From IMG/VR virus record IMGVR_UViG_3300045988_127492, positions 32,001 through 96,000 of that record: DNA of 64,000 nt; one strand, 5' to 3'. The position numbers and the translations under genes were made by a program. Under the pieces are notes generated by a model, which did no database searches, was not told the origin of the DNA, and worked only from the letters and a program-made list of their open reading frames with translations. The DNA comes from a virus. Every line of letters starts with the position of its first letter. Positions within the stretch are counted from its first letter, which is position 1. Shown one piece after another: positions 34,493-64,000 of the stretch.

Positions 34493-35854
34493 ATCTGGCA
34501 TCTCTGGTCTACTGGCATGCAAATGCCTCCACCAAGGGATGTTATATTTTAAAGGATTAATTTGTTGCAAATTTATAAGATATGATATATAAAAAGAAGC
34601 AATAGATCCTCGTGATGGACCAACTAAAGATCCTCCACCATCTTCTGAGTCGTCCCACATCATATTGATAATATCCAATGCTGTAATATAATAAGAAGAA
34701 ACTCTATCATTTAATTTTTCACTGGTTTCCCAGATAGCTCCTAACTCATCATTAATTCTTAACATCATTGATCTTATCTCTTCTTTCGTAAGTGACTCCG
34801 AATATTGCTTTGACCACCATCCATCTTCGATAAGATATAGCAGATATCTATCACTCTTTTCTTTTGAATAAGCAAAATTCTTAATGTAGGGACAAAAATC
34901 ATAAGCTGTTTCAAAAGAGTGGCTCATTGTAAACTCTGGTATTTTAGCCTTAGGTACAATTTGCGTATGATACAAGTCATATTCTTCAACCTTCTCACCA
35001 ATCTCCAAAGAGCACATCAAAGCCTCTTCCACTTCTTCATACCCAAGATAATCCATCCTCTGATGAATTTGTTCATTAGTCATTAGCCAAGTTGATTCAT
35101 AGAAGTCACCTAACTCTCTTTCTTCATCATCGCGGCTATTAAGATAAGCAGCGTGGATTTCTCTATCTTCTTGTTTCAAATAATGGACATCACAAGCAAC
35201 CGTAGCTTTTATTCCTAACTGATGTTTTAGTTTTATAATTTCTCGATTCAGTTTTATCTGTTCTTCTGACAGCCCCGGTTGCATTTCTAAATAGAAATCT
35301 TTGCCAAATAACTGCTGGTTCCATTCGAGAAAAGGCAGGTAATTTTCTCCTGCAAGTAGAGACTTACCTAATTCTCCCCCTAGACATGCTGTTGTTGAAA
35401 TCAGGTGTCCAGGATTAGATTTAACCACACGTTCCAGATCACTCTTCAATGTAGGAACACGTTCCATTCTTCCTGTATAAAAACTATTGTCCCACGCTAA
35501 GGAGCTGAGTTCTCTCAACTGTTTATGACCTACTTCGTCTTTAGCCAAAAGAATGTAATGATAAAATGGTGATTCACAGGATTTCTTACCGTCTTCTGTT
35601 ACATATAATTTATCAATAAGATAAATTTCATTACCAAGGATACCTTTGAAATCCTCCGGTAATTCACCGGAAGACTTCATGGCTTTAATTGTTTGAATAA
35701 ATCTCACATGACCAGATACAGATTCATGGTCAGTGATAGCAACTCCTGAAAGTCCAAGAGATGCTGCTTGTTTTATTAATTGAGGTACTTTTACAATACA
35801 ATCCAACATACGAAGCTGACTAAATTCTGTATGTGCATGTGTCTCTATTCTCAC
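34493..35854 (-). CDS. dnaE: DNA polymerase III alpha subunit, exon 1 (PHP domain and start of the palm)
   Basis: THAHTEFS...ITDHESVSG is the PHP domain. GPSRGSIASFYISYLINLQQINPLKYNIPWWRHLHASRPEMPD ends at the conserved PD(I/V)DID active-site block. Confidence 0.85.
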
Positions 35855-42427: not shown

Positions 42428-43189
42428 TTATTCAAAAATACTTCCACTAATGCCTAGTGCATCAGCTAGCAATGATTTCAGAGGTTCTGATGGATTCTGA
42501 TCGTTCAACCATCCTAAATAACTATCTGGAATATTGGAGAGTAGTTCTCCTTTATATTTGCCGAATGGCATAAGATATGTTTCTGGCGTAGGTTTGAACT
42601 CCTCAATAAGTTCTTCTACTTCAGTTTCATCAAAAGATACGGTCAAATCCTTTCTTGAAGCTAAGTAATCTGCTAAGTGAACTATCATCTGACCTTTTGT
42701 TTCTGGTAGTGGTAGGTCATCTTTGCTTCTTTTATCAGTATTCCACTGCCCCATGTGTGAGGCACAACAATCTGCAATATAATCTAATTCTTCATCTGGC
42801 AACCATTCATATCCCTTGTAAGCTTTTACTCTCTCAGCTATAAGTAAAGGATGTTTGAATAAAGTATACTGACTGCCATTACGTCCTAGTTTTTCATCAT
42901 CATGATTCATAATTGCCGTTCGTAATAAGTCTCTTTCCCTTGATGTGAACAGGTTCTTTATACAGTCAATAGCTAACATATGATTTAAAAATCTAGTTGC
43001 TCCTTTTACATGTTTGGCAAGTCCCATAAATCCAACTGTATAATCAGGGTGGTATTTATTCGTACTTGAAGCAGACACTTGCCAGAAATATGTAGGTGCA
43101 GTCTCTAATAATTCAATACAAAATTCTTGGATATCATCGTTTTCAAACAGCTCTAGCTCTTCCTTAAAAAATCTCTCTGCTAATGTCAT
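42428..43189 (-). CDS. HD-domain phosphohydrolase with a DUF3820-like C-terminus
   Basis: KYHPDY...NHDDEK (the H...HD...D pattern). C-terminal MPFGKYKGELLSNIPDSYLGWL. Confidence 0.55.
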   Translation of the reverse strand: MTLAERFFKEELELFENDDIQEFCIELLETAPTYFWQVSASSTNKYHPDYTVGFMGLAKHVKGATRFLNHMLAIDCIKNLFTSRERDLLRTAIMNHDDEKLGRNGSQYTLFKHPLLIAERVKAYKGYEWLPDEELDYIADCCASHMGQWNTDKRSKDDLPLPETKGQMIVHLADYLASRKDLTVSFDETEVEELIEEFKPTPETYLMPFGKYKGELLSNIPDSYLGWLNDQNPSEPLKSLLADALGISGSIFE

Positions 43190-44481
43190 ACAGCTTCCTC
43201 CTCAATAATTTCTTGTGCTTCTTCCATATCTGGTGCATCAGAGGAATCTTTGATCAATCCTTCAAGAACCTTGAAAGTGAAGTTCTTGTGTTTATAAGCT
43301 TTAAAGCTGCTTCTATTATCAATTCTTACAACTACACCTTCTCTAACATGTGTCGCTCCTATTGGATCAGGCCCGTCATAGTATTTCTCTACTCGAGCCA
43401 TTAAGTCTTCCTTAGTAGTAAACAAGAATTTGTCAAATTCAGGTACGTGTTCTACTGCTAAACGATTACACCAATTCTTTACTTCTTCCCACGGAATCTC
43501 TGTTACAACTCCGTCTTCATTGGTCATGGTCATTCTATAGACATAAATATCAGAAGTGCCTGGTGTACATCCATAAGAGAATATTGTTTCATCTCCGTAA
43601 AGTTTTCTAACCTCTTTATCTTTGATTTTAGTATTAGAGCAAGTTCCCATAATAGTCTGATCGGTTCCATCAACCCATCCTACTATTTCATAGAATATTT
43701 CCATTCCTTTAGGGAGTCTGCTAGAAAAGTAATCATGATATTTTTCTCTAAATTTATTAGATCCATAATATCCACCCTCATATTCTTCTAACACAACTCT
43801 TCTCGTACCAGAAACAGGCTTCCATCCTTTAATGATAGGTGCTGGTTTATGGAATAACTTCTGTAAGAAAGTTCTCTTGCCCTCAGTGACTTTAATAGAG
43901 TTTCCGGTACGACCTGATGTTCCATGCATTTTTAAAGTAATGTAGCAAGTGTCTCCTGGTTTAAAGGCATCAAGATTATAAGCTAATTGCTCTGTATCTA
44001 CATGTTCCATAAAATATGGGAAGTTGTCTTTTAGATTTTTACTTTTATGTTTTGGATAATTAGACTTTCTATGATTTGATTTAGGAATATATTTTTGACA
44101 GATAACAGTACCATCAAGTACAGTAATTTGATCGCCTAAAGATAATTCATCTACATTTGTCCATTTATTAAGGGATTCTACGGGTAATACTAATCCTTCT
44201 GATTTCTCACCTCGAAGTCTCATTGCTTTGATGTTTCTTTTTACAGGATCAAGATACCCACCTGTAGTTGTCCCATCTTCGTTTTTAATACGCAGTAAGT
44301 TGTTTTCTTTTGCAAATTCTTCACCAAGCTGTCCGTCAACCGGGAAGAACACAACTTTCTGCCCTTCGTAATAACTTAAATCAACAATAACCGTATTTCC
44401 AAAGACGGTCGCAAGCTGGAGCCTATCAGCATTGTTGTGTTTACGAAGTTGCTTTAGCTCAGTAATGTAAGCGCAATACAT
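43186..44481 (-). CDS. RNA ligase, DraRnl/Rnl5-like (N-terminal OB domain + adenylyltransferase)
   Basis: ITLKMHGTSGR is a motif I K-x-H-G nucleotidyltransferase lysine. The N-terminal domain ADRLQLATVFGNTVIV...GEKSEGLVLP is as in DRB0094-type ligases. Confidence 0.6.
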   Translation of the reverse strand: MYCAYITELKQLRKHNNADRLQLATVFGNTVIVDLSYYEGQKVVFFPVDGQLGEEFAKENNLLRIKNEDGTTTGGYLDPVKRNIKAMRLRGEKSEGLVLPVESLNKWTNVDELSLGDQITVLDGTVICQKYIPKSNHRKSNYPKHKSKNLKDNFPYFMEHVDTEQLAYNLDAFKPGDTCYITLKMHGTSGRTGNSIKVTEGKRTFLQKLFHKPAPIIKGWKPVSGTRRVVLEEYEGGYYGSNKFREKYHDYFSSRLPKGMEIFYEIVGWVDGTDQTIMGTCSNTKIKDKEVRKLYGDETIFSYGCTPGTSDIYVYRMTMTNEDGVVTEIPWEEVKNWCNRLAVEHVPEFDKFLFTTKEDLMARVEKYYDGPDPIGATHVREGVVVRIDNRSSFKAYKHKNFTFKVLEGLIKDSSDAPDMEEAQEIIEEEAV

Positions 44482-51457: not shown

Positions 51458-54079
51458 TTAGTTACTTCCTTTCTTACAAATTGCTTTTCTAGTCCAATCT
51501 ACAGGCACAACCATAAATGCTGTCACTAAGACTACAATCCACTGTTTAGCATCCATTGGAGTTGTCTGTACTAGATTTCCTACAAAGTTACACAAAACTA
51601 CAGTCATTGCAAAAATACCCAATGCGATATATACAAATAATTTGTTATTTTTAATTCCTTTGAAAAGATTCATACTATCTGTTCTAATAGTGAATCCATT
51701 AAATACTGCCATTAAACACAATAAAGCGAATCTCGCTGTCATAGCCGAAAGTTTTGTTGCAAACATATTTCCAACTGGACCAAATGTAATTACACCAAAT
51801 AAAGCAATAAATACAATTGAACTTAATGCAATTCTTCCTTTCGCTCCACGGATAAATAATCCGGATCCTTTCATGATAGGCTCTTCATTCATATATTCCT
51901 CTTTTGGCGGTTCCCCACCAAAGCTTAATGAGTTAAGTGAATCCATGATGATATTTACAATAAGAATCTGAACTGCTGCTAAGAGAGCTGATCCGCCAGA
52001 AATAATTGGAAATACCATACTTAAGATCAACAATGAAATATTGATAGGTAACTGGAATTCAAGGAACATCATAATGTTATGCATAAATGTTCTACCAAGT
52101 TCGACTGCCTTTACCACACTTGCAAAATTATTGTCTGTCAAAACAATATCTGCTGCTTCTTTTGCTACATCAGATCCGTCTTGCATTCCAAAGCCTACAT
52201 CTGCTTTCTTTAGTGCAGGAGCATCGTTCACACCGTCACCTGTCATTGCTACAGACATTCCAATTTCTTGTGCTAATGTTACAAGGCGAAGCTTCGTATT
52301 CGGTGAGCATCTGGAAATTACTCTTAACTGTGGAATAATCTCTTTTACCTTTTCATCTGACATTGCCTCAAACTCATCATTGGTAACTGCTAAGTCTCCA
52401 GGCTTATAAATTCCAGCTTCCATAGCAACAGCCTTAGCAGTCTCCATGCAATCGCCAGTAATTTCAATTACCTGAATTCCAGCTTTATGAGCAATTTTTA
52501 CTGCTTCTGGAACTTCATTCCTAACCGGGTCAACAACTCCAATGACTCCAAGGAGATTCATTTCATCGGGGAGACCATCATCAGTTTTATCTGAGATAGT
52601 CAATGCAATACATCTCATTGCCTTCTCTGTTAATCCTTTAATATGGCTCTTTAAAGCTTTTCTTTTTTCTTCTGTCAGCTCAGTTACAATGCCATCATTA
52701 TCAAGATAAAATTTACACTTCTCAATTAATTTCTCTGGTGCGCCTTTATAAACAGTAAAATCATTTGCTCCATTATTTAAAGTAACTGCAGAGAATTTAT
52801 TTTCACTACTAAATGGAACACGTTTCTTCATGATAGCTTTATTCTGTATTTTTTGTGCATCTTCAGGAGAAAGCATATCAAGTACTGCTCGATCAATTGA
52901 ATTACCACCAGTGATATTTCCGTTAGAATCGAACACTGCACTATTATTCATGCAGATATTTAAATCAATTAGCTCGTTGAGCGGACTTTCCTTATTAAAA
53001 ATATCCTGACAGTTACCGTTAATCATAACTGTAGAAGTCATTTCACCTGTTGTGAGAGTTCCTGTCTTATCTGTGCAAATTAAATTAACATATGCTAATT
53101 CAGGAATTTTACCAGTATTCTTTGCAAGAATATTGAATTTTTCCATTGTTGATACATTTTGTTTAGTGACAAGTTTTACAATGAGTGGTAAGCCTTCTGG
53201 TACAGCAGCAACAATAATTGTCAATGCATTTGAGACATTCTGTGCTACTTTCTGAATACTTTCAAGAATACTTCCTGAGAAATACTGATTTAAGCTTCCA
53301 GCATTTAAGATACCTGTAATTGTCATAATTACAAATGCTAATGCTGCCGCAATTGTTCCCCATTTTGAAATAAAATCACACAAATGATCCAGAGCAATAT
53401 CAAGAGCTGTCTTAGGTGGTTCTAAAGTCTGCATTTTGACAAGAGTATCACCATTAACTGTATTAACACCAACATCTGTAACAATCATTTTTCCTTCACC
53501 AGACATAATAACTGTTCCTGCAAAGAGAGAACACTGGTCCGTATATGCAGTAGTTGATGTTGTTTTAACATGCTTATAATCAATACTAGGAATCTTTCTA
53601 CATTCTTTTGTTTCTCCATTGATAGCGGCATTATTAACAGAAATTTCCCCTTCAACAATAAAACCATCTGCAAAAATCTCTTGTCCAGTTCTCAATAGAA
53701 CTAAATCACCTACTACCAGATCATCTTTATTAATTGTCTGTATGCTTCCGTCTCGGACAACATCACAATATCTAACTGCCGTTTTTGCTCTTAGTTCTGC
53801 TGCAGATTTCTGTACACCTAGACCTGTCTTAATAGCAATTCCAGTAACAATAGCCAAAACCACTATAATCATCACAGGCTCAGAAAGAGACATTACTCCC
53901 ATAGCTCCTAAAACTAACTGGAATAAAGCAATTATTATTAGAATCATAGTAATTGGTTCAGTTAATGCTTCCTTAGCAAAATGATACCATTTTTTCAATT
54001 CAGACTCCGGAAGCTTATTACTTCCATATGTAGCCCTGCTAACCTCTACTTCGTTACTTTTTAATCCATTAAATTTCAT
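51458..54079 (-). CDS. P-type ATPase, Ca2+-transporting (P2-type)
   Basis: ICTDKTGTLT phosphorylation motif, TGDGVNDAPALKKADVG, PEGLP, and about 10 TM helices. The ATG at 54079 follows AGGAGA. Confidence 0.9.
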   Translation of the reverse strand: MKFNGLKSNEVEVSRATYGSNKLPESELKKWYHFAKEALTEPITMILIIIALFQLVLGAMGVMSLSEPVMIIVVLAIVTGIAIKTGLGVQKSAAELRAKTAVRYCDVVRDGSIQTINKDDLVVGDLVLLRTGQEIFADGFIVEGEISVNNAAINGETKECRKIPSIDYKHVKTTSTTAYTDQCSLFAGTVIMSGEGKMIVTDVGVNTVNGDTLVKMQTLEPPKTALDIALDHLCDFISKWGTIAAALAFVIMTITGILNAGSLNQYFSGSILESIQKVAQNVSNALTIIVAAVPEGLPLIVKLVTKQNVSTMEKFNILAKNTGKIPELAYVNLICTDKTGTLTTGEMTSTVMINGNCQDIFNKESPLNELIDLNICMNNSAVFDSNGNITGGNSIDRAVLDMLSPEDAQKIQNKAIMKKRVPFSSENKFSAVTLNNGANDFTVYKGAPEKLIEKCKFYLDNDGIVTELTEEKRKALKSHIKGLTEKAMRCIALTISDKTDDGLPDEMNLLGVIGVVDPVRNEVPEAVKIAHKAGIQVIEITGDCMETAKAVAMEAGIYKPGDLAVTNDEFEAMSDEKVKEIIPQLRVISRCSPNTKLRLVTLAQEIGMSVAMTGDGVNDAPALKKADVGFGMQDGSDVAKEAADIVLTDNNFASVVKAVELGRTFMHNIMMFLEFQLPINISLLILSMVFPIISGGSALLAAVQILIVNIIMDSLNSLSFGGEPPKEEYMNEEPIMKGSGLFIRGAKGRIALSSIVFIALFGVITFGPVGNMFATKLSAMTARFALLCLMAVFNGFTIRTDSMNLFKGIKNNKLFVYIALGIFAMTVVLCNFVGNLVQTTPMDAKQWIVVLVTAFMVVPVDWTRKAICKKGSN

Positions 54080-54081
54080 TT

Positions 54082-55113
54082 TCAAATTTCTCCTAAAATA
54101 ATTCTTTCATTGACAGATGCCACAAACGCTTCTATGGATTTATAATCTGGTTTATCTGGTAACGCAGTATTTTCCGCATCATATTTAAGTCTTTTCTCTA
54201 ACTCATCTATCATTTCAAAAAACTCTGGAATAGGCTGATAATTTTCATCCAAATATTTTCCATTGCGTAAATCCATAAGAAGTTCATGATCATCTTCTCT
54301 ATATGTAATAATTTTTCCTTTCTCAAGAATGTCAAAACACATAAGATACAGTCTCACTAAATGACACATATGCTTTCCCAACTTATTGTGATCTATAGCA
54401 TGTTTGTTTCTCTTCCCAATTTTAGAATAGTCTTTAACAATACTTTTCATTTCAGCCCACATTCCTTGATAATCATTCAAAGGATAGTGCTTTAGGTGAA
54501 TATCCATAAACACTTCTGTTTCATAGTCTTCCTGAACACCTTTATCTACATAAAGCTTTATTGCATCTTCTGGAAAATTGAAATACTTTTCAGGGAAAGT
54601 ATAAAAAGCATTCATAATACTATTAAGAACATGCTGCATTCTTTCTTCTTGTCCCAATTTCCTGGCAGCTTTATTATCGAGCCTTCTTAGCTGACTTGTA
54701 GCATAGCCTCCAAAAGAATAGATCGCTTTCTTAGATAAAAACATTTCAGCATTATCAAGAAGTTCTTGACCAATTGGATGAATATAAAGATAATGTTCTG
54801 GCTTCAATCCTATCAGCTCAATTGTGTTTGGGTTGCAGTTTGACAATAGAGTTATCAATTTATTAAAAGAATAGATTGTTGTATCTGTTGTTTCTTCCGT
54901 TACCTGATCAAAATTATGTGTAGGAATCAGGATTTCTTCTCTTTTATTTAAAGCACAACCCCTAATATCCAGATCGGAGTTTTCTGTATCTGTACCATAA
55001 GCATGAGACCCACCTAAGCCTAATAGAATTATGTTACTCCCCAGGTGCTCGTTCGCTCTTAAGAAATCATAGTGTTCACTTTTCAACAATTTTTTGATTT
55101 TCTCTATTTTCAT
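54082..55113 (-). CDS. Pol-beta superfamily nucleotidyltransferase (RlaP-like)
   Basis: LLGLGGSHAYGTDTENSDLDIRG is the GS...D.D motif of Pol-beta NTases. The family assignment is from memory. Confidence 0.5.
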   Translation of the reverse strand: MKIEKIKKLLKSEHYDFLRANEHLGSNIILLGLGGSHAYGTDTENSDLDIRGCALNKREEILIPTHNFDQVTEETTDTTIYSFNKLITLLSNCNPNTIELIGLKPEHYLYIHPIGQELLDNAEMFLSKKAIYSFGGYATSQLRRLDNKAARKLGQEERMQHVLNSIMNAFYTFPEKYFNFPEDAIKLYVDKGVQEDYETEVFMDIHLKHYPLNDYQGMWAEMKSIVKDYSKIGKRNKHAIDHNKLGKHMCHLVRLYLMCFDILEKGKIITYREDDHELLMDLRNGKYLDENYQPIPEFFEMIDELEKRLKYDAENTALPDKPDYKSIEAFVASVNERIILGEI

Positions 55114-55594
55114 CAATTTCTCCTGTTGAATAATAATAATTTACTATATCATCTAAGTTCCTTATCTCTTTTTCTAACTCTGCACACTTTTTCTTGCTAT
55201 CACATGCCCATAACTGTTTTCGTAGCTTCGTTGCAACCTCAGATACCTTTTCTGCTTCTTCTGTTTTATCAATGGTTTCTATGACATCAACTTCAATTGG
55301 TTCTCCGCAAAATGGACAGAATTTAAGAGGGTAATAATAGTCATCAGGCCATGTATCTCCCCAGTCTTGGACTTCTTCGCTTACGTAAAAGAAAATTCCA
55401 AAAGTTTCATTACTTTCGTAATCACAGTCTTGGCATACTACACTTTCACAAGTTCTACATAGGTAGGCATCAGGGTATTCATTAGAAATAATTATTCTAG
55501 GATTTTCTTCCAATGCCTTACAGCAGAACTTTGGTTTATAATACTTATAAGATGTGTTGCCATCTACAATTATTTCCTTTGCTTTTATTTTCAT
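55076..55594 (-). CDS. Cys-rich hypothetical protein (zinc-ribbon-like)
   Basis: Multiple CxxC pairs: CRTC, CQDC, CPFC. Confidence 0.5.
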   Translation of the reverse strand: MKIKAKEIIVDGNTSYKYYKPKFCCKALEENPRIIISNEYPDAYLCRTCESVVCQDCDYESNETFGIFFYVSEEVQDWGDTWPDDYYYPLKFCPFCGEPIEVDVIETIDKTEEAEKVSEVATKLRKQLWACDSKKKCAELEKEIRNLDDIVNYYYSTGEIDENRENQKIVEK

Positions 55595-56584: not shown

Positions 56585-57730
56585 TTACATATCCTCCATT
56601 GAATAAATTACTCTCTCTAAGCTTCTTTTGGATTTAAAGCATTTCTTAAGTAAACACCACATAATTGCCTTTTCAACATCGTCTTCATCTTCCCAATCAT
56701 TTAAGACTACAGAAGTTTGAGTTCCATCTTTAAAGCCAACAGTTGTTCTAATCTTTTCTGTAGAAATATCTCTTGTTCTTCCTACAAATGCAATATCGTC
56801 TTTCGATAAGGTTTTACAAACGTGTTTATCAGTTTTGTTTTTAGGTACAATATATACATCAATACCCAAAGCATCTTTAATCTGACGTTCGCAACTTCTA
56901 AGCTCCTCTCCAATAGTATGTTCTTTTTCTTTTTTCGCTACTACTTTTTCAAGTGCTTTTAAGATTTCATCTGGTGACATGTTCATATCTGTTTTCTCCT
57001 CTTTATAATCAAAATATGGCATTGGTTTCAGTTTAAACTCATTCTTCTCATGTAAACGATCAATTCGTCTTTTTACTTCTGGATCGTCACATACTCCTGT
57101 ACGAATATATCTATCTAATACTGCATAGGTGAATCCAAAGTTATCTTCATCTGACTTGCCGCATAAACCATCTGCTGGCGTTTTCTCTACATATTTTTTA
57201 GGCAATCTTAAATAATGACCAATTGCTACAACTTCCTTTTTTACAAAAGGAGCTAATGGAGCTAAATCTCCTGCTCCGTCACCATCACGAGTAAAATATC
57301 CAATATATATTTCACTAAGATTTCCAGTATTGACTACTCTTCCATTATGAGACTGTGCTACCCCGCGTAAAACAGCCATTCTTAATCTTGGAGCAAGATT
57401 AATCAGGGTCTGATCTGATACATCCAGTGCAAGATCAATCTGATCAATGATATCATCATAAGCATATCCAATATTAATAGTAAGATAATCAATACCTAAT
57501 ACGTGCTGGCAGATATCATACGCCACATCTATATCATCCTGTTTGTAATTTGGCATAATTACTCCGAGGACTTTGCTTGGTCCGACAGCTTCCACACATA
57601 ACTTAGCAGCTACTAAAGAGTCAACACCGCCGGAAATACCTACTATAAAGTTACATTCTGGGCCATTTTTCTCTCTCCAATCTCTGATCCACTGAATGCA
57701 ATCATTTGTTGCTTTTTCTACATTAAACAT
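56585..57730 (-). CDS. nadE: NH3-dependent NAD+ synthetase with a C-terminal extension of about 130 aa of unknown function
   Basis: VGISGGVDSLV PP-loop; NTGNLSEIYIGYFTRDGDGAGDLAPL; PADGL...SDEDNFGFTYAVLD. Confidence 0.8.
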   Translation of the reverse strand: MFNVEKATNDCIQWIRDWREKNGPECNFIVGISGGVDSLVAAKLCVEAVGPSKVLGVIMPNYKQDDIDVAYDICQHVLGIDYLTINIGYAYDDIIDQIDLALDVSDQTLINLAPRLRMAVLRGVAQSHNGRVVNTGNLSEIYIGYFTRDGDGAGDLAPLAPFVKKEVVAIGHYLRLPKKYVEKTPADGLCGKSDEDNFGFTYAVLDRYIRTGVCDDPEVKRRIDRLHEKNEFKLKPMPYFDYKEEKTDMNMSPDEILKALEKVVAKKEKEHTIGEELRSCERQIKDALGIDVYIVPKNKTDKHVCKTLSKDDIAFVGRTRDISTEKIRTTVGFKDGTQTSVVLNDWEDEDDVEKAIMWCLLKKCFKSKRSLERVIYSMEDM

Positions 57731-58223
57731 TCTGTTCCTCCAATTTCCATAATTCTACTTCAAAGTTACACAATTCTTCTTCTATAATTTTGTAAATCAC
57801 ATCCCAATCTGCGCCTCCTCTTCCGCAGCCTATTTTATATGGGAGTGCAATGCTTGTCTTGTGAGGCCTATTATCAACATCAAACCAATAAATAGGTATC
57901 TGTTGCCGAATGAAATTTAATCCCTCTCGAAAAGCTTTAAGATCTGTATATTGCTTACCATCATATCCATACTTGTCTTGTGCAAATAAAGACAATATTA
58001 CTTGATTTTTCCATCTGATAAAGTACTCGTCATATGTTCCAAGAAGTAATTCTGGATTAAACTCACGTAATTTACAGACGTTTCTATAATGTATATAAAT
58101 ACTTTCGTCATAATCTCTTAATGCTTTAGCAACACCAGTATTCATTTCTCCTTGGCAGTTAACTTGATGAATTATATAATCGGTCTTTGCATCTACAATG
58201 TTGCCTTCAATAATTCTAATCAT
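57723..58223 (-). CDS. Macro-domain protein (ADP-ribose binding/hydrolase)
   Basis: IIEGNIVDAKTDYIIHQVNCQGEMNTGVAKAL and a later GCGRGGADW motif. Confidence 0.7.
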   Translation of the reverse strand: MIRIIEGNIVDAKTDYIIHQVNCQGEMNTGVAKALRDYDESIYIHYRNVCKLREFNPELLLGTYDEYFIRWKNQVILSLFAQDKYGYDGKQYTDLKAFREGLNFIRQQIPIYWFDVDNRPHKTSIALPYKIGCGRGGADWDVIYKIIEEELCNFEVELWKLEEQNV

Positions 58224-58764
58224 TTTTTACCTCTTTATAATTTGCATCTCCTACGTCATACATACTAAAATGGAAATCCATATAATCTTTATCATCTATA
58301 TCTTCTTTGTCAAAGAAATCTTCAATCTGCTTTCCATCTGCAATTACAATATAGAGATTTCCATCTTTGCTTATGTACGTTTTTTGAGCTTCGTTTGTAT
58401 AATCACTATCACCTGTCCAATCTGTATAATACTCATAAGATTCTACCGGTTCGTCAGGATGATATTCGTCTTCTAGTTCAAACTTAATTTTTGTAATGTC
58501 ATTATACATAGACAATGTATCAAATATCATTTCTGAAAAACCTTCTGGTACCGCAAAACAACCAAACTGATTTCTCTTTTTATTTGCATCTTTATGAATT
58601 TCAATGGCAATAATGTTAGCTGACACCATTTTACAAATAGCGTTACATGCTATTCTTCTTACAGAAGTGTCTATATCCTCTACTATAAAATCTCCTATGT
58701 ATTTACCATCAATGGTCACATAATCACAATTTTCTAAAATGAAGGTAATTGATTTTAGTCTCAT
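58216..58764 (-). CDS. Hypothetical protein
   Basis: The internal ATG at 58764 follows GGAGAAAAA and avoids a long overlap with the upstream gene. Confidence 0.4.
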   Translation of the reverse strand: MRLKSITFILENCDYVTIDGKYIGDFIVEDIDTSVRRIACNAICKMVSANIIAIEIHKDANKKRNQFGCFAVPEGFSEMIFDTLSMYNDITKIKFELEDEYHPDEPVESYEYYTDWTGDSDYTNEAQKTYISKDGNLYIVIADGKQIEDFFDKEDIDDKDYMDFHFSMYDVGDANYKEVKND

Positions 58765-58772
58765 TTTTTCTC

Positions 58773-59186
58773 CTATAAATCCTGGAACGTAAACTTCTCG
58801 CCACAAGAGCAAATCACTTCTCCAATAGTTCCAATTGATGTAGGTGTGAAGCACCATGTAAGAGATCCACCTATGCAGCCATGTCCCATTGCTCTCTGTT
58901 TAGAAGTTTTAAGTCCATGTTTTTCTGCATCATGTTTCAACTGCCACTCTCTAATTTTCTTTTCTTCCTTTTCAGAAATTGGGAATCCTCTGTACAGATC
59001 TTCTTTTGCTTTTTTCAATTCAGCTTCCATTCTCTGCATTTCAGAATCTTTATAATGCTCATCTTTGAGATTTTTATTTTCTTCACTCAGATACTTAATT
59101 CGTCTTTCATAAGAATCTGCCTTATCAATAATTCCCTGACAAAGTTCTGAAACCGAATCAGTAAAATATGTTTTTCTCATTTTCAT
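58773..59186 (-). CDS. Hypothetical coiled-coil / Cys-containing protein
   Basis: 137-aa ORF. Confidence 0.45.
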   Translation of the reverse strand: MKMRKTYFTDSVSELCQGIIDKADSYERRIKYLSEENKNLKDEHYKDSEMQRMEAELKKAKEDLYRGFPISEKEEKKIREWQLKHDAEKHGLKTSKQRAMGHGCIGGSLTWCFTPTSIGTIGEVICSCGEKFTFQDL

Positions 59187-59187
59187 C

Positions 59188-60654
59188 TTAATGTTCTCCG
59201 TTTAATCTGTTTCTGATTTTTTCAAAACACTCATCATCATATGTTCCCCCATTAATGAACACTGTCCTTAATGCATCATCATATACAAGACTGTCATATC
59301 CATCTGCACACTGTAGTTCTCCATTTTCATCATAATAGATATAACAACATCCTTTATGAGATTTCTTTAAATGACTTGTATCAGTCTTCGGATCCTTATA
59401 AATCATGACTGGTTGTCCATTAACTTCTCCGAACGTAGCTTTCATAGCAATTCCAAACATATCTCTAGTTACAACGACCATACGTCCATCAGGTTCTACG
59501 ACCGCTGAAAAACAAAAAGCTCCCACACCAAAAACAATATTGTTCGCGGCGAATCCTTTCTTCTCAAGTTCCTCCCATACCTGCCTTACATTATTAAGAG
59601 TACAGCCATCTCCATAGATAATTCCAATATGAGGGTCCAGTACTTTATATCCTTTGCTATTCACTGATCCTTCAAATGTGTTCCAGAGTTTTTCAATTGT
59701 CTTTACTGAAATTTCTACCATATTTCCACTGTCCGGACGAACCAGAAGCTTACCGTTATGCTGCATAATTTCTTCTTTACAAGCTGGAAGAATGTTGTCA
59801 ATCATATTCCAGTAATCATATGTATCAGATACCATACTGAATGATGCATTAGGATAAAGCTCTGTAAGCAGTCTCTTCACAAATGTAATTTCATCTCCGT
59901 CTACGGCGAAGTTTGAAGCCATAACTGAGTGTTCTGTTGAGATTGCTCCAATTCCAATACCTTCTGTATAACAATCAGCATCGTAATATTTGTCCAAATA
60001 ATCAATTGCTGGGATTGTGCTGGTTTTATCGAATGATAATAACCATGCGGCAGAACATCTTTTAGCTTCTTCAATACAGGACATTCCTCTCATTCCAAAG
60101 TCAGAGCAAGCTAAATTGGGTTTTAAAGAGTCATCACAAGTCTTTTTGTAATAGAAATTAGCCAACTCTCTGTACATATGTCCGATTGTCGCATGAGCAC
60201 ATGGCTTCCAGAGTTCTACCTGCAGGATACATTCAATCCACTGTACAACCCATGCAAAGTCTGGATGTGTATTTGTGATCTCGATACACGGTACCCCCAT
60301 CGGAACCAGTGTTCCCTCCGGTAATGCGCGGATTTGAATTGGAAGATATCCTAATTCGTGGAGTTTAAGGATTGGAGAAATATCGTAATTTCTTTCCCCT
60401 AACTGGATATCCATACTATATGTATAGAGTTCCTGAATTTCGTCAGTATTCAACTTGAAAAAATCCCTTTTGAAATATTTAACAAGATACTCTTTAATAA
60501 AAGCCTGCAGTCCGAAGAAAACCATATGATCTTGCTCCTTTAACATTGATCTTCTCGGAGTCCAATAAGAGACTAACTTCGTAAGTCCCTTCGGATAGAT
60601 TTTATTATGGATTTGCTTATAAGTGTCACTTAATAAAATTGCAAGTGTATTCAT
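59188..60654 (-). CDS. nadV: Nicotinamide phosphoribosyltransferase family protein (NadV/NAMPT, or the Namat paralogue of the NARP1 pathway)
   Basis: LLSDTYKQIH... (DSYK-type N-terminus), 488 aa, with NAMPT-like core blocks. Confidence 0.75.
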   Translation of the reverse strand: MNTLAILLSDTYKQIHNKIYPKGLTKLVSYWTPRRSMLKEQDHMVFFGLQAFIKEYLVKYFKRDFFKLNTDEIQELYTYSMDIQLGERNYDISPILKLHELGYLPIQIRALPEGTLVPMGVPCIEITNTHPDFAWVVQWIECILQVELWKPCAHATIGHMYRELANFYYKKTCDDSLKPNLACSDFGMRGMSCIEEAKRCSAAWLLSFDKTSTIPAIDYLDKYYDADCYTEGIGIGAISTEHSVMASNFAVDGDEITFVKRLLTELYPNASFSMVSDTYDYWNMIDNILPACKEEIMQHNGKLLVRPDSGNMVEISVKTIEKLWNTFEGSVNSKGYKVLDPHIGIIYGDGCTLNNVRQVWEELEKKGFAANNIVFGVGAFCFSAVVEPDGRMVVVTRDMFGIAMKATFGEVNGQPVMIYKDPKTDTSHLKKSHKGCCYIYYDENGELQCADGYDSLVYDDALRTVFINGGTYDDECFEKIRNRLNGEH

Positions 60655-61043
60655 TATTTTTTATTCTCCTCTTTGTTGTTTACAACTTTATCAATCTGGT
60701 CAGTAATGTAATCAATAACATCCTTGCCGGTTTTCCCAACTGCTTGAATGTTATCTGTCGTTACATTATCTAATACAATCATTGTATACATTGTATCTTT
60801 CGATGGAGTTACTGCAAAAAGTAAACTACTAACGCAAAGCCAGATAACTGATTTCTTTAAATACTTTTTACATGCAACAACAGGTTCCTCATCCTGTTCA
60901 TAATCCATAGAACTAAGAAACCAAATAATTGATAATACCACCGCTGCACATCCAAGTAAAAATAATACAACACTAAATAATCCCTTTAAATCATCAAATA
61001 AATCAATTAAATAAATCAACCATGGGTTAATAATCGGTTTCAT
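60654..61043 (-). CDS. Membrane protein
   Basis: Two TM helices. Confidence 0.45.
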   Translation of the reverse strand: MKPIINPWLIYLIDLFDDLKGLFSVVLFLLGCAAVVLSIIWFLSSMDYEQDEEPVVACKKYLKKSVIWLCVSSLLFAVTPSKDTMYTMIVLDNVTTDNIQAVGKTGKDVIDYITDQIDKVVNNKEENKK

Positions 61044-61056
61044 ATTTTTATCTCCT

Positions 61057-61446
61057 TTATAACTTTCCTATCAAACAGCTCCAAGTAAAACCAATCTGAA
61101 ACATATGAGTTATTTGATCTTGAATTAAATTAATTTTCTTTTTATTGGCTTTCATATCATCTACTAACATATGTATCAATAAATTCATAACCAATAATAA
61201 AGGATTCCATTTACCACCAATAATCATAAGCGCAATTGTTGGTGGTAACATAATCATAAATGACCAACTAAAGCTATGCATAAACAATGCTGCTAAATAA
61301 TCATATTTATATAATTTTCCTGGTGCATTCTTTTCCCACCATGATTTTTGCTTTGCAGATGCTAACCATCCTTGCAAGTAATAATCATCTACAATATGAC
61401 AGAAAATCATAGTAAATAAGATAAATATTTTATATGCAATATTCAT
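61057..61446 (-). CDS. DUF3307-like membrane protein
   Basis: HIVDDYYLQ motif plus several TM helices. Confidence 0.45.
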   Translation of the reverse strand: MNIAYKIFILFTMIFCHIVDDYYLQGWLASAKQKSWWEKNAPGKLYKYDYLAALFMHSFSWSFMIMLPPTIALMIIGGKWNPLLLVMNLLIHMLVDDMKANKKKINLIQDQITHMFQIGFTWSCLIGKL

Positions 61447-62249
61447 TATCTAAACCTCTCAATCAGTTCAATCTTAGGACTTTCAAGATTTGTCAAAATC
61501 GTATCTGTCGTATAAATCTTCTCAATCAGTCCATTATTCTTCAGAAGCTCTCCATCATAAATAGTGTTTTCACAATGAGTAACATAGAGATAAATCTTAC
61601 CTACACCGGCCTCCTTTAGCTTTTTAGCACTATGATAAAAAGTACCGCCTCTGCTACAGATATCATCTACTATAAGGATATCTTTACCTGGGAGTTGATT
61701 AATTTCACCTGATAGATCAAGACCTTTGATTTCTCCTGTCTCCCAGTCTCTATTCTTAATACCAAACGCATATGGAAGATGTACCATGGAAGAATATCTC
61801 TTCATAGATCCTGCGTCTGGATAAAACATCATGAGATTATCACTCGCAATCTTCTTGACAGTAGCTTCAATCATTCGATTCGGTGACTCTACATGCACTT
61901 TATTAAATAACGCAACAGATACATCAGAGTGAGGATCTAAAACTTCTACCTTATTAAAATGCAATGAATTAATAATCTGAGCAAAATATTTTAAAGTAAA
62001 TAATTCGTTCTCATGCTTAACTCGATCCATACGAGCATCTGGGATATAAGGCATGTATAAACTAGGTACTACTCTATGGTCCCAACAATATCTAGCTATA
62101 TATTCAACTGCTGTTAACTCTTCCATTGATTCAAAGAACCATTCAATATTATCTCTACTCCATCCACCGATGGGTGGGAGATTCTTAAATAAGAATGTCC
62201 CATCCGGATATTTATCAAGTTTGATTTCTACACCGTTTAATTTAATCAT
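61446..62249 (-). CDS. prs: Ribose-phosphate pyrophosphokinase family protein (Prs, or the Adps paralogue of the NARP1 pathway)
   Basis: YMPYIPDARMDR, LDPHS and ILIVDDICSRGGT, which is the PRPP-binding loop. Confidence 0.7.
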   Translation of the reverse strand: MIKLNGVEIKLDKYPDGTFLFKNLPPIGGWSRDNIEWFFESMEELTAVEYIARYCWDHRVVPSLYMPYIPDARMDRVKHENELFTLKYFAQIINSLHFNKVEVLDPHSDVSVALFNKVHVESPNRMIEATVKKIASDNLMMFYPDAGSMKRYSSMVHLPYAFGIKNRDWETGEIKGLDLSGEINQLPGKDILIVDDICSRGGTFYHSAKKLKEAGVGKIYLYVTHCENTIYDGELLKNNGLIEKIYTTDTILTNLESPKIELIERFR

Positions 62250-62604
62250 TCCAAATCTCCTTGTAATTTATTTCTCGCTGCTCAATGATGTTATTTCTTG
62301 TGAAAACAATCTCAAAATCTGAAATCTGTTTCGTTCCAACAAGCTGAAATTCATAAACTTTATATCCAAGTTTCTTCAGTTCAAGAACATCAGTAAGGCT
62401 GAACCAGTGTTTTAATGTTTCCTTTGATGGTGCTGCTGAGAACCACTGTTTCCCACCTTCTCTGTATAATTCACTATCTTCCATTGGCAGGTTTCTACTT
62501 AATCCTTCTGAGAGCTGGTCGAATACAGGATTCCATGTTCCATCAAAATTCCGCCACAGTCCATGTTTCTCAATTTGGTCTTCTACTCTATATCCGAAAA
62601 TCAT
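62242..62604 (-). CDS. Hypothetical protein
   Basis: 120-aa ORF that overlaps the prs-family start. Confidence 0.45.
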   Translation of the reverse strand: MIFGYRVEDQIEKHGLWRNFDGTWNPVFDQLSEGLSRNLPMEDSELYREGGKQWFSAAPSKETLKHWFSLTDVLELKKLGYKVYEFQLVGTKQISDFEIVFTRNNIIEQREINYKEIWND

Positions 62605-62622
62605 TTCTTTTCTCCTATCACA

Positions 62623-63318
62623 CTAATCTGACAACTTTTCATTGTATTTTTCTTTTAGTTTTTCATAAGCGAGATGTGCTTCATATTCTGTTTCATATCT
62701 TCCACCATATATATTTTTACTATTGTGAACATATGTGACCTGCCATTTTCCATCTTTTAGTCTTGTTACACCTACATATCTTGATGTTGTTGTTAATTTT
62801 CTCCTGCCAAGCATTTCATCGAAATTAATTCTATTTGGTAAAAACATGCATGTCTCTATTGAGTATATTTTATTATTACTTCCAATATATGACATATCTT
62901 TATCTAATTGAATTTCTCCTTTTAAAAATTTTTGTTCATTATACCCTTTTATATTAGGGATATCTTTATAGAAATATTCAAAACACAACCATCTGTCGCA
63001 TACCCGTATTCCCTTCTCCCCGTACAATTTATATCCCTTATGATTTTTGTTGTAACATCTTTCAATCATAAATTTCCATAAATTAAATTCTTTCTTATGA
63101 TTGGATTTTTTTATATCGCCTTGACAGGCAACGCCATAATAAATAGGATAGTAAGGATCTCTTATTTCTCCATATATAACGCAAGATGCACATATATCTT
63201 TTTCATAATTAGTTAATAAAAATCTCACTCTATATTTCTGAGAATTATATCTTTTTATAATCTCATAATCTCCATATTTATTGGATTTTCTTATATCTCC
63301 AACTTTAATTTTACTCAT
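62623..63318 (-). CDS. AP2-domain DNA-binding protein, probable free-standing homing-endonuclease-like gene
   Basis: C-terminal YVGVTRLKDGKWQVTYVHNSKNIYGGRYETEYEAHLAYE is an AP2 fold signature. GIRVCDRWLCFEYFYKDI is common in phage endonuclease-like proteins (from memory). Confidence 0.45.
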   Translation of the reverse strand: MSKIKVGDIRKSNKYGDYEIIKRYNSQKYRVRFLLTNYEKDICASCVIYGEIRDPYYPIYYGVACQGDIKKSNHKKEFNLWKFMIERCYNKNHKGYKLYGEKGIRVCDRWLCFEYFYKDIPNIKGYNEQKFLKGEIQLDKDMSYIGSNNKIYSIETCMFLPNRINFDEMLGRRKLTTTSRYVGVTRLKDGKWQVTYVHNSKNIYGGRYETEYEAHLAYEKLKEKYNEKLSD

Positions 63319-63877
63319 TTATGGCCTCAATCTGAAGTGATTTTAAAATTAACACCGTATTTTTATACATTTCTGTAGTAGTTGCAGCAGTACATTTTAA
63401 ATCAATAAATATATTTGCTTCTGGAAAAGCTGTTTTTAATAATACCAAATTAGTAATAACACATACATCCAAGCACAAACCACAAAGCTCTATGAAATAT
63501 TCGCCCTGAATTTCCTTATTTTCCGTTATAAATGGCTTTAAATATTCAATGAGTTCAAGAGATCCGAATGTATGTTTTAATATAGGTTTGTAATAACTGT
63601 ATCCTCTTAAACAATTGTAAATACTATCTTCAATTTGCCAACCATCTGAACTAACAATACAGTGCTTTATAGGTAATTTTTTACCTTCATTTGTCTCTAA
63701 GTAATCAGCATAATGAGTATCTTGTGTAGATATAATAATGCCATTATTTGATTTATACTCTTCAATTTTTTTCACTATATTTGGTACAACTGCCTGAGCT
63801 TCCGGTGTACCTAGCGAACCTGTCACAAAATCATTCTGCACATCAACTACAATCAGAACTTTCTTTTTACTTTCCAC
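63311..63877 (-). CDS. pncA: Isochorismatase-family nicotinamidase
   Basis: GTG start after GGAGGT. Motifs LIVVDVQNDF, TQDTH, KHC and CGLCLDVCV (catalytic Cys region). Confidence 0.7.
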   Translation of the reverse strand: MESKKKVLIVVDVQNDFVTGSLGTPEAQAVVPNIVKKIEEYKSNNGIIISTQDTHYADYLETNEGKKLPIKHCIVSSDGWQIEDSIYNCLRGYSYYKPILKHTFGSLELIEYLKPFITENKEIQGEYFIELCGLCLDVCVITNLVLLKTAFPEANIFIDLKCTAATTTEMYKNTVLILKSLQIEAINE

Positions 63878-64000
63878 AAATATTACCTCCGATAATCATT
63901 TTCCCAAATGGATACTCGACAATTCCATAGCTGCATAGGACTTCCATTTCTTTAGTTGGATCATTTCCACACACCTCTAACAATGCCTCAACTTCTTCTA
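63867..64000 (-). CDS. Hypothetical protein, C-terminal fragment (5' end lies outside the window)
   Basis: Open frame from the window edge ending ...GKMIIGGNICGK*. It overlaps the pncA start by 11 nt. Confidence 0.3.
   Translation of the reverse strand, partial: EEVEALLEVCGNDPTKEMEVLCSYGIVEYPFGKMIIGGNICGK

Follow-up and report, generated by a model that had tools for sequence, protein, structure and literature searches.

The stretch of viral DNA that we analyzed (64,000 nucleotides of IMG/VR record IMGVR_UViG_3300045988_127492; hereafter, the window) encodes five enzymes of NAD+ and ADP-ribose metabolism at 56585-63877, all on the minus strand: a nicotinamidase (PncA), a homolog of ribose-phosphate pyrophosphokinase (Prs), a NAMPT-family transferase, a macro-domain protein, and an NAD+ synthetase (NadE). 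On balance, we think from the sequences that this island is probably an NAD+ reconstitution module of the NARP1 type that has been rewired through the deamidated branch of NAD+ synthesis. NARP1 consists of Adps and Namat, which take ADP-ribose and nicotinamide back to NAD+ by way of ADP-ribose pyrophosphate (ADPR-PP) (Osterman et al., bioRxiv 10.1101/2024.02.11.579819). In the NARP1-AP system of Vibrio phage Gary, which is encoded as Adps-Adpp-Namat, the added Adpp is a Poa1p-like macro phosphatase that opens NARP1 to the ADPR-1''-phosphate made by aRES (bioRxiv 10.64898/2026.01.28.702374).

In the route that we propose, a host NADase would split NAD+ into ADP-ribose and nicotinamide. The phage nicotinamidase would convert nicotinamide to nicotinate and ammonia (step 1), and the Adps homolog would convert ADP-ribose and ATP to ADPR-PP and AMP (step 2). 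The Namat homolog, which lacks the amide-binding Asp, would then join nicotinate and ADPR-PP to give nicotinic acid adenine dinucleotide (NaAD) and pyrophosphate (step 3), and NadE would form NAD+ from NaAD, ammonia, and ATP (step 4). As a feeder, the Adpp-like macro enzyme would convert ADPR-1''-phosphate to ADP-ribose, which would give the products of RES-type NAD+ phosphorolysis a way in. No adenylyltransferase would be needed. All five enzymes are identifiable and intact; what the enzymes of steps 2 to 4 act on, and a role in counter-defense, are our inference. That role, against NADases, is proposed by analogy to NARP1 and NARP1-AP, and it is also suggested by the enrichment of the macro gene in phage versions of the module.

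The transferase belongs to the Namat lineage. Its best match in the PDB is the Namat of SPbetaL1 (9w5x, 385 bits), followed by 9ke8 (which is labelled as NAMPT; 308 bits) and human NAMPT (~191 bits). In a phylogenetic tree, it lies in a monophyletic subclade with Ser or Ala at the position of the amide-recognizing Asp, and this subclade is nested among Asp-type Namats that are linked to Adps. When aligned to SPbetaL1 Namat, with the roles of residues taken from PMC12774641, the catalytic core of the window's transferase is intact (D10, Y12, F186, R189, H242, R306, D308, G348-D349, and T396-R397-D398). As in NARP1, two enzymes are paired in the island, one derived from Prs and belonging to the Adps lineage and the other derived from NAMPT and belonging to the Namat lineage; they are co-oriented, with their catalytic residues intact, and the expected feedstock is likewise the ADP-ribose that is released by NADase defenses.

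We also considered the name of an NCBIfam model, NF006629 (the NAMPT/NadV family), as a clue to the substrate. The window's transferase, at 462 bits, exceeds the model's cut-off (405 bits), and the model is named "nicotinate phosphoribosyltransferase." We rejected this as support because the model also captures the characterized Namats from SPbetaL1 (592 bits) and Bas62, so its name is uninformative about the substrate. An AlphaFold2 model of the transferase, built from a shallow alignment, had a mean pLDDT of 63.5, with the active site and the clamp below 50, and we did not use it.

The pocket for the pyridine base is altered. D215 of SPbetaL1 Namat forms a hydrogen bond with nicotinamide, and the D215A substitution cuts the output of NAD+ by 8-fold (PMC12774641); the corresponding Asp219 of human NAMPT is the recognized determinant of substrate specificity (PMC7096376). 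In the window's transferase, this residue is Ser212. Also, A242, which lines the nicotinamide pocket in SPbetaL1 Namat, is replaced by Ser239, and S190 is replaced by Gly187. Of 96 distinct viral members of the family, 92 have Ser and 4 have Ala at position 215 (SPbetaL1 numbering); all 74 canonical Namats that we examined have Asp. Khan et al. reportedly found in 2006 that D219S of human NAMPT admits nicotinic acid. Table 2 of PMC4919578, which cites Khan 2006, lists D219S as a substrate switch and D219A as inactivating.

To see which genes accompany the altered pocket, we surveyed about 300 loci from phages and bacteria. These were drawn from IMG/VR around relatives of the window's transferase, of SPbetaL1 Namat, and of Bas62 Namat; from one genome per GTDB species; and from reference phages. 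The loci were annotated with profiles of the five enzymes, and the transferases were typed at position 215 and at the adenine clamp (see below). Only loci that are non-redundant and have 3 kb or more on each side are counted here:

Ser/Ala-type transferase, viral (n=90): PncA in 89, Adps in 89, NadE in 87, macro in 76
Ser/Ala-type transferase, bacterial (n=31): PncA in 29, Adps in 31, NadE in 27, macro in 2
Asp-type transferase, viral (n=55): PncA in 0, Adps in 55, NadE in 0, macro in 10
Asp-type transferase, bacterial (n=36): PncA in 0, Adps in 33, NadE in 0, macro in 5

The co-occurrence is nearly perfect. PncA, Adps, and NadE are found together at 110 of the 121 Ser/Ala-type loci, and neither PncA nor NadE was found near an Asp-type Namat at any of 91 loci. 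Within the clade, the partners diverge to as little as about 41% identity to the window's proteins for Adps, 37% for PncA, and 40% for NadE. Because the change to Ser212 co-occurs almost perfectly with PncA and NadE, a pathway via nicotinate and NaAD is probable, and because the nicotinamidase and the NAD+ synthetase are constant partners, we predict that the transferase's product is NaAD rather than NAD+. The two enzymes also fit the logic of the module, since they would act just before and just after the proposed transferase reaction. As judged from these gene neighborhoods, the data say that PncA and NadE are obligate partners of the changed transferase, not optional additions. The initial annotation of the window had described a broader salvage network, with PncA and NadE as additions that cover both the amidated and the deamidated routes; given Ser212 and the obligate partnership, we would refine that part, as the pathway probably does not run alongside the amidated route. 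The other part, the processing of ADP-ribose derivatives, does fit, as the macro-domain protein resembles the Adpp of NARP1-AP.

The survey also bears on the view, which is in effect that of the initial annotation, that the island is an ordinary NARP1-AP system with unrelated helpers. NAD+ would still be made from nicotinamide, PncA and NadE would boost the host's own deamidated salvage, and the changes in the pocket would be neutral or would tune affinity. Every core catalytic residue is intact, as this view expects, and residual use of nicotinamide by the Ser variant is possible: as reported in the table mentioned above, D219S in the human enzyme switches affinity and does not abolish activity. 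But the transferase would lose its own substrate to a nicotinamidase that is encoded in its operon. Also, bacterial members of the clade naturally have Ala here, a substitution that lowers the activity of SPbetaL1 Namat 8-fold (D215A) and inactivates the human enzyme (D219A). And independent helpers would not sort so cleanly, with PncA or NadE at none of the 91 Asp-type loci and both of them with Adps at 110 of the 121 Ser/Ala-type loci. Because of the loss of substrate and the clean sorting, we consider a nicotinamide-using NARP1 with helpers to be quite unlikely.

The genes and features of the island, all of them on the minus strand, are:

63867..64000, minus: 3' end of a 207-aa gene that is cut by the end of the window (full gene taken from the contig)
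63311..63877, minus: nicotinamidase (PncA-like isochorismatase), 188 aa; PF00857, 52.6 bits
62623..63318, minus: HNH-type homing endonuclease, 231 aa; phrog_2081 and phrog_953, E=3e-41
62242..62604, minus: 120-aa protein, a variable accessory gene; phrog_23161, in only 12 related loci
61446..62249, minus: Adps-like Prs homolog, 267 aa; phrog_619, 2e-69
61057..61446, minus: small membrane protein (DUF3307), 129 aa, variable; PF11750, 23.7 bits, and phrog_2470; in 18 related loci
60654..61043, minus: small membrane protein, 129 aa; phrog_3878, 9e-19; in 65 related loci, often between Adps and the transferase
59188..60654, minus: Namat-like transferase, 488 aa; PF04095 and PF18127 (NAPRTase and NAMPT N-terminal domains)
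60019..60021, minus: codon of Ser212, which aligns with the nicotinamide-recognizing Asp
59476..59505, minus: ten-residue insertion AVVEPDGRMV in the helix motif of the adenine-selectivity clamp (from the alignment)
58773..59186, minus: 137-aa protein, commonly found between the transferase and the macro gene; no match in Pfam or PHROG, homologs in 78 related loci
58216..58764, minus: 182-aa protein as called on the source contig (213 aa from the first start codon); phrog_2349, with a homolog in no related locus
57723..58223, minus: macro-domain protein, 166 aa, candidate Adpp; phrog_335 ("phosphatase"), 1e-35
56585..57730, minus: NH3-dependent NAD+ synthetase NadE, 381 aa; PF02540 and TIGR00552
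56588..57004, minus: C-terminal extension of NadE, about 140 aa, with no detectable family

The genes that the initial annotation had listed (NadE, macro, NAMPT-family, Prs-family, and nicotinamidase) are thus all present, in place and on this strand, as are the two membrane proteins, the three proteins of unknown function, and the endonuclease interspersed among them, which is of the HNH type. The intergenic gaps range from -8 to +18 nt. Scans of the island for promoter and terminator consensus sequences found sites no more numerous than in shuffled sequence, so the boundaries of the operon were judged only by the spacing of the genes. Of 90 related viral loci (non-redundant), 85 share the order PncA-Adps-transferase-(macro)-NadE, with transferases as little as 52% identical, and this order recurs in genomes of Clostridia. 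This arrangement is far beyond chance. The HNH endonuclease is nearly absent from the related loci, with a 61%-identical copy in the same spot in one of them only (L096); it is a mobile insertion that separates PncA from the other genes of the module, and it stands outside the pathway. The genes for the Adps homolog and the transferase are 791 nt apart, with the two small membrane-protein genes (60654-61446) between them, and either of these proteins might transport a pyridine precursor.

Many relatives of the window's transferase are longer, at 646-649 aa (for example at L012, L018, and L020-L023, and protein P0010), owing to a C-terminal extension of ~158 residues. The extension begins with DVDGVL, which is reminiscent of HAD phosphatases; it has no match in Pfam and no counterpart in the window. 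One cluster of these extended transferases has 2,406 member sequences.

By score, the Prs homolog groups with Adps; one full and one partial Prs served as outgroups. With 92 bits, it falls short of the cut-off of the Prs model TIGR01251 (113 bits), as does the experimentally characterized Adps of ICP1 (98 bits), and E. coli Prs reaches 423 bits. It is far below every cut-off of the equivalog models for housekeeping Prs. Conversely, a profile built from the Adps proteins that are encoded beside canonical Namats gives 246 bits for the window's protein and 138 for E. coli Prs. The catalytic Lys and the acceptor-site residues have been described for ICP1 Adps (PMC13586617), and the window's protein keeps the Lys (K185 in ICP1) as well as R87, H121, D161, and DD212-213. 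Its PP loop is DDICSRGGTF, as compared to DDICDGAASF in ICP1 Adps and DDMIDTGGTL in Prs; the Cys and the Phe are shared with Adps. At 267 instead of 315 aa, the protein is short, which is consistent with loss of the C-terminal regulatory helices of Prs.

The transferase is also altered in its adenine clamp. In the clamp helix, the window has GAFCFS[AVVEPDGRMV]VVTRD, where the bracketed residues are the insertion, and the Namat consensus is GS[FY]TYQ[YF]NTRD; the window's protein fails the canonical clamp motif. The insertion is present in 96 of 96 viral members of the family. All of these keep the aromatic residue at F392 (F380 in the window), and the residue at Y396 is not kept. In the clamp loop, the window has Met37 in place of Arg40. 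Because the clamp has been remodelled, the use of ADPR-PP is less secure in the window's subclade than in the Clostridium forms, which are described below.

This leads to the main rival, in which the transferase would use nicotinate with phosphoribosyl pyrophosphate (PRPP) and the host's NadD, so that the module would boost the Preiss-Handler pathway. The Prs-like protein would make PRPP, the transferase would form nicotinic acid mononucleotide (NaMN) from the nicotinate supplied by PncA, the host's NadD would convert NaMN to NaAD, and the phage's NadE would finish the pathway; the macro-domain protein would act independently, for instance by reversing ADP-ribosylation. The substitution in the pocket and the linkage to PncA and NadE would fit any nicotinate-using transferase. 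Also, the equivalents of Arg40 and Tyr396 have been lost from the clamp, and the PP loop of the Prs-like protein retains the Prs-like GGT. To our knowledge, NadD is universal in bacteria, and a phage could rely on the host's copy. Namat itself keeps activity with PRPP in vitro (PMC12774641).

Several lines of evidence argue against this rival. The Prs-like protein scores on the Adps side, and the Adps of SPbetaL1 forms no product from ribose-5-phosphate. The adenine-clamp motif is intact in the Clostridium members, and Phe392, which stacks on the adenine and ribose, is invariant in the clade, while the nearest NAMPT (9ke8) has Gln. The macro (Adpp) gene lies within the module in 84% of the phage versions. 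Finally, the module would be one step short, whereas canonical Preiss-Handler operons include nadD. We consider the PRPP-based booster to be unlikely, though it should be taken more seriously than the other alternatives.

Within the Ser/Ala clade, we see a graded series of forms. The first is in chromosomal operons of Clostridium, with Ala215, Ser242, and a canonical clamp. The second is in other Clostridia and in a metagenomic phage scaffold (MT835544.1), with Ala215 and the clamp insertion. The third is in the group of gut phages that includes the window, with Ser215, Gly190, and the insertion. The basal Clostridium operons, which are arranged as Adps-PncA-transferase-NadE, keep the clamp motif GSYTYQYNTRD; this type of adenine clamp is the signature of ADPR-PP use (PMC12774641).

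A 1.5-Mb contig of Clostridium sartagoforme (L264) carries the operon Adps-PncA-transferase-NadE, followed by NrtR, with its Nudix domain and NrtR winged helix. ADP-ribose is the effector of NrtR, which controls NAD salvage operons that include prs-nadV pairs; why these pairs have a dedicated paralog of Prs is an acknowledged puzzle (PMC2330246). The canonical operon of Clostridium acetobutylicum is nrtR-pncA-pncB-nadD-nadE (PMC2330246). Our module resembles it in having PncA first and NadE last, in being deamidated, and in the linkage of NrtR to the bacterial copies, but it lacks PncB and NadD and has Adps and a Namat-type transferase in their place.

The bacterial copies suggest another alternative, namely that the island is housekeeping cargo: an NrtR-controlled operon for recycling ADP-ribose and niacin in Clostridia, taken up by phages for a general supply of NAD+ during replication and not as a specific answer to NAD+-depleting defenses. 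In Clostridium species, chromosomal copies adjoin NrtR on contigs of Mb scale, and gut jumbo phages are known to carry nadE and pncA (PMC11662467). However, this alternative concerns the purpose of the module instead of its chemistry, and is compatible with a deamidated NARP1. Also, the Adpp-like macro gene is present in 84% of the phage versions of the Ser/Ala-type module and in 6% of the bacterial ones, which points to the products of defense systems as substrates; and ADP-ribose is scarce except when NAD+ is cleaved. We give little credence to the idea that the island is mere cargo.

Some other features of the bacterial loci are worth recording. At many of them, Nudix proteins of 230-300 aa adjoin the Adps-transferase operon, be it of the Asp type or of the Ala type (L236, L238, L242, L272, L280, and others); the one at L264:10206-11114 is NrtR. 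Because Nudix or NrtR-type genes adjoin operons of both types, bacterial NARP1-like operons may generally be regulated by ADP-ribose. In Lachnospiraceae bacterium A4, a protein with a NADAR domain (L237:9462-9890) lies between the transferase and NadE, in the usual spot of the macro gene, and this module is flanked by an IS605 OrfB transposase and phage-like genes. Ala-type modules were also found on contigs assigned by binning to CPR and DPANN, which are groups of ultra-small organisms: a metagenome-assembled genome (MAG) of Candidatus Nanosyncoccus has Adps-transferase-NadE (L251), and a Nanoarchaeia MAG has PncA-Adps-transferase-NadE (L274). Binning errors or phage contigs could be behind these two.

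Turning to the other enzymes of the island, the PncA-like protein has the catalytic residues D12, K101, and C139 and the metal site D53, H55, and H72, and all of these are invariant in 84 relatives. Its best match in the PDB is the pyrazinamidase/nicotinamidase of Pyrococcus horikoshii (1ilw), and the catalytic and metal-binding residues align. NadE matches PF02540 (E=3e-46, 158 bits) and TIGR00552 (161 bits, with a cut-off of 64), and its PP-loop motif SGGVDS is at residues 33-38. The C-terminal extension of NadE is found in just 24 close relatives, where it is always fused; elsewhere NadE is 245-270 aa.

As a single sequence, the macro-domain protein has no match in Pfam, but it matches phrog_335 (1e-35) and the macro domains of DarG in the PDB. 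A profile of its family matches BT1257 (1e-37) and, over the full length, yeast Poa1p (6lfq and 6lfu, ~1e-17). A further match (E=3e-23, with an identity of about 30%) is to the macro protein in the Adps-macro-Namat operon of Vibrio phage 184E37.1, which has the same three-gene architecture as phage Gary. These similarities place the protein in the Poa1p-like class that includes Adpp and make it a candidate ADPR-1''-phosphate phosphatase. The family resembles the ADP-ribosyl hydrolases DarG and TARG1 too. We had considered a macro homolog from SPbetaL8 as a reference for Adpp, and dropped it because the gene is not adjacent to a NARP1 operon.

The island is thus similar to NARP1-AP in embedding a Poa1p-like macro protein. 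Unlike in NARP1-AP, where the gene lies between Adps and Namat, the macro gene follows the transferase and precedes NadE; and macro genes are in 84% of the clade's phage loci, as compared to 15-18% of canonical NARP1 loci. An ADP-ribose feedstock is the only reading that makes sense of a macro gene in 84% of the phage modules. The island also differs from NARP1 in several ways: it has four core enzymes instead of two, with the nicotinamidase and the NAD+ synthetase as constant partners; its Adps and transferase genes are separated by the two membrane-protein genes; its base pocket has Ser212 instead of Asp and Ser in place of A242; and its clamp has the ten-residue insertion.

Other known pathways for restoring NAD+ are NARP2, which comprises a PRPP-preferring Nampt and an Nmnat (an HxGH nucleotidyltransferase, often with Nudix) and is found in phage KVP40, and NARP3, which comprises a PnuC-like transporter and a NadR-like bifunctional enzyme (PMC13464706). 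Like the island, both are phage-encoded, and NARP2 shares with the island a NAMPT-family enzyme; unlike in NARP2, however, the island's enzyme falls among the Namats and has Adps as its linked partner. We scanned 66.4 kb of the 152-kb genome, which is the 64-kb window plus the 2.4 kb from position 64000 to the end of the contig. Six-frame translations of this sequence contained neither the HxGH motif of NMNAT nor a Nudix box. Neither membrane protein matches PnuC, and we found no NadR domains in the island. We therefore rejected the NARP2 and NARP3 readings; given the lineages of its enzymes and the absence of NMNAT, Nudix, PnuC, and NadR from these 66.4 kb, the island is of NARP1/NARP1-AP ancestry. 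In the survey, the HxGH motif was not found in any viral Ser/Ala-type locus, and among the bacterial Ser/Ala-type loci it was found at a single locus from a MAG (L235), in a NadR-like gene.

The initial annotation had recognized a NARP-type island, and this is borne out, with both enzymes of the pair on the Adps/Namat side when compared to characterized Adps and Namat or to Prs and NadV. It had left open whether the Prs/NAMPT pair was part of NARP1 or NARP2: the lineage scores and the tree argue for NARP1, and the lack of HxGH or Nudix motifs argues against NARP2. It had also suggested that the gene cut by the end of the window (63867..64000) might be a missing adenylyltransferase or Nudix component, and that the sequence beyond 64000 should be examined. 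The full 207-aa protein has no family in Pfam, PHROG, or NCBIfam at threshold and neither an HxGH nor a Nudix motif, and the next 2.4 kb contain neither motif.

A number of points count against a deamidated NARP1. First, as judged from the tree, the association of PncA and NadE with the altered transferase reflects a single origin that was kept over deep divergence, and not repeated convergence: all of the Ser/Ala-type enzymes form one clade, so their co-occurrence amounts to one origin with long retention. The tree itself was made by neighbor-joining and was rooted with one close NAMPT (9ke8), which is not among the GenBank phage proteins. Second, the assignments of the partners are imperfect. 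The window's isochorismatase scores 28 bits on NCBIfam's PncA equivalog, where the cut-off is 174. NadE matches two structures in the PDB equally well, 2e18 and 3fiu, with 121 bits each; 3fiu is the NMN synthetase of Francisella tularensis, which prefers NaMN. Third, the clamp in the window's subclade is remodelled, with an insertion and with the equivalents of Tyr396, Arg40, Ser190, and Ser391 lost. Fourth, the members of the clade are known from sequence alone. Fifth, the scan spans 66.4 of 152 kb, so an adenylyltransferase elsewhere in the genome is possible. Sixth, the bacterial chromosomal copies mean that the module is not specific to phages. Finally, the deamidated route costs one more ATP than NARP1 does. 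One possibility is that this costlier route is favored where an active nicotinamidase in the host keeps nicotinamide low and nicotinate plentiful.

In reverse complement, the window corresponds to positions ~2403-66402 of a 152,097-bp metagenomic contig (ENA ERZ27229669:k119_71578). The contig is of phage origin, with genes for an endolysin, a tyrosine integrase, a ribonucleotide reductase, a DnaB-like helicase, an RNA ligase, and a DNA polymerase that is split. The G+C content is ~34%, and from 17.5 kb on, nearly every gene is on the minus strand. A megablast search of the island against GenBank phages gave just a 381-bp match, with no close relative there, and IMG/VR contains over 100 related contigs of 90-250 kb. 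The bacterial loci that are nearest to the window's transferase are from MAGs of Roseburia and Lachnospiraceae, from Lachnospiraceae bacterium A4, and from Thomasclavelia cocleata, which suggests that the host belongs to the Clostridia.

Several other genes of this phage are of interest. The tyrosine integrase (17568-18746, minus strand) is located where the coding strand and the GC skew switch, and the 152-kb phage is possibly temperate or integrative. The phage also encodes a P-type cation-transporting ATPase of 875 aa (51458-54085, minus strand), with E1-E2 ATPase and cation ATPase N- and C-terminal domains. Among the auxiliary genes of phages, this is an unusual one; it is conserved at 97-98% in close relatives and at 62% identity in one distant relative. 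The DNA polymerase is split into two open reading frames, one matching the N-terminal part of phrog_405 and the other the C-terminal part, and a 295-aa open reading frame for a LAGLIDADG-type endonuclease lies between them (30671-33094, 33552-34439, and 34406-35854, minus strand). Directly downstream of the island is an RlaP-type nucleotidyltransferase with the Pol-beta fold (54082-55116), and the RNA ligase is another 10 kb on (43186-44481); both are on the minus strand. In the relative MT835544.1, an RNA ligase is immediately upstream of Adps. The nucleotidyltransferase and the RNA ligase may form an RNA-repair set.

We did not find a description of a nicotinate variant of NARP1 in the literature. 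In the two papers on the structure of NARP1 and in those on NARP1 and on aRES (with the aRES supplements), NARP1 is nowhere associated with nicotinate, NaAD, NadE, or PncA; a 2022 survey of viral NAD+-ADPr systems does not tie them to NARP1 either; and our literature search found no paper that joins NARP1 with NadE or a nicotinamidase. Genes for NAD+ synthesis, including nadE and pncA, have been reported from gut jumbo phages, where they were listed as parts of the standard pathway (PMC11662467). Among 50,697 phage records in GenBank, the sole example of a Ser/Ala-type transferase is in one unannotated metagenomic scaffold, and the proteins from isolates are all at most 43% identical. Because GenBank's phage isolates hold no example, earlier surveys of sequenced isolates would miss the module.

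A broader claim can be made, and it seems to us about as apt to be right as wrong: that the Ser/Ala-type Namats are a new kind of enzyme, a nicotinate ADP-ribose transferase that forms NaAD directly from nicotinate and ADPR-PP, and that together with PncA, Adps, and NadE they define a fourth self-contained route of NAD+ reconstitution, without an adenylyltransferase, that is widespread in human-gut phages of Clostridia, mostly accompanied by an Adpp-like macro phosphatase, and that was exchanged, in either direction, with an NrtR-linked chromosomal operon of Clostridium species. The depletion of NAD+ is among the commonest anti-phage strategies of bacteria, and NARP1 is the main known answer by phages. 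If our proposal is correct, it would add a reaction that has not yet been described (nicotinate + ADPR-PP -> NaAD), and NARP1 would have been re-plumbed in a large group of uncultured gut phages. It would offer an explanation for the operons of the Prs-NadV type with pncA and nadE in Clostridia. It would also provide a rule for annotating NAMPT-family genes, which are now labelled alike: Asp versus Ser or Ala at the position of D215, together with neighboring PncA and NadE, would tell the two kinds of transferase apart.

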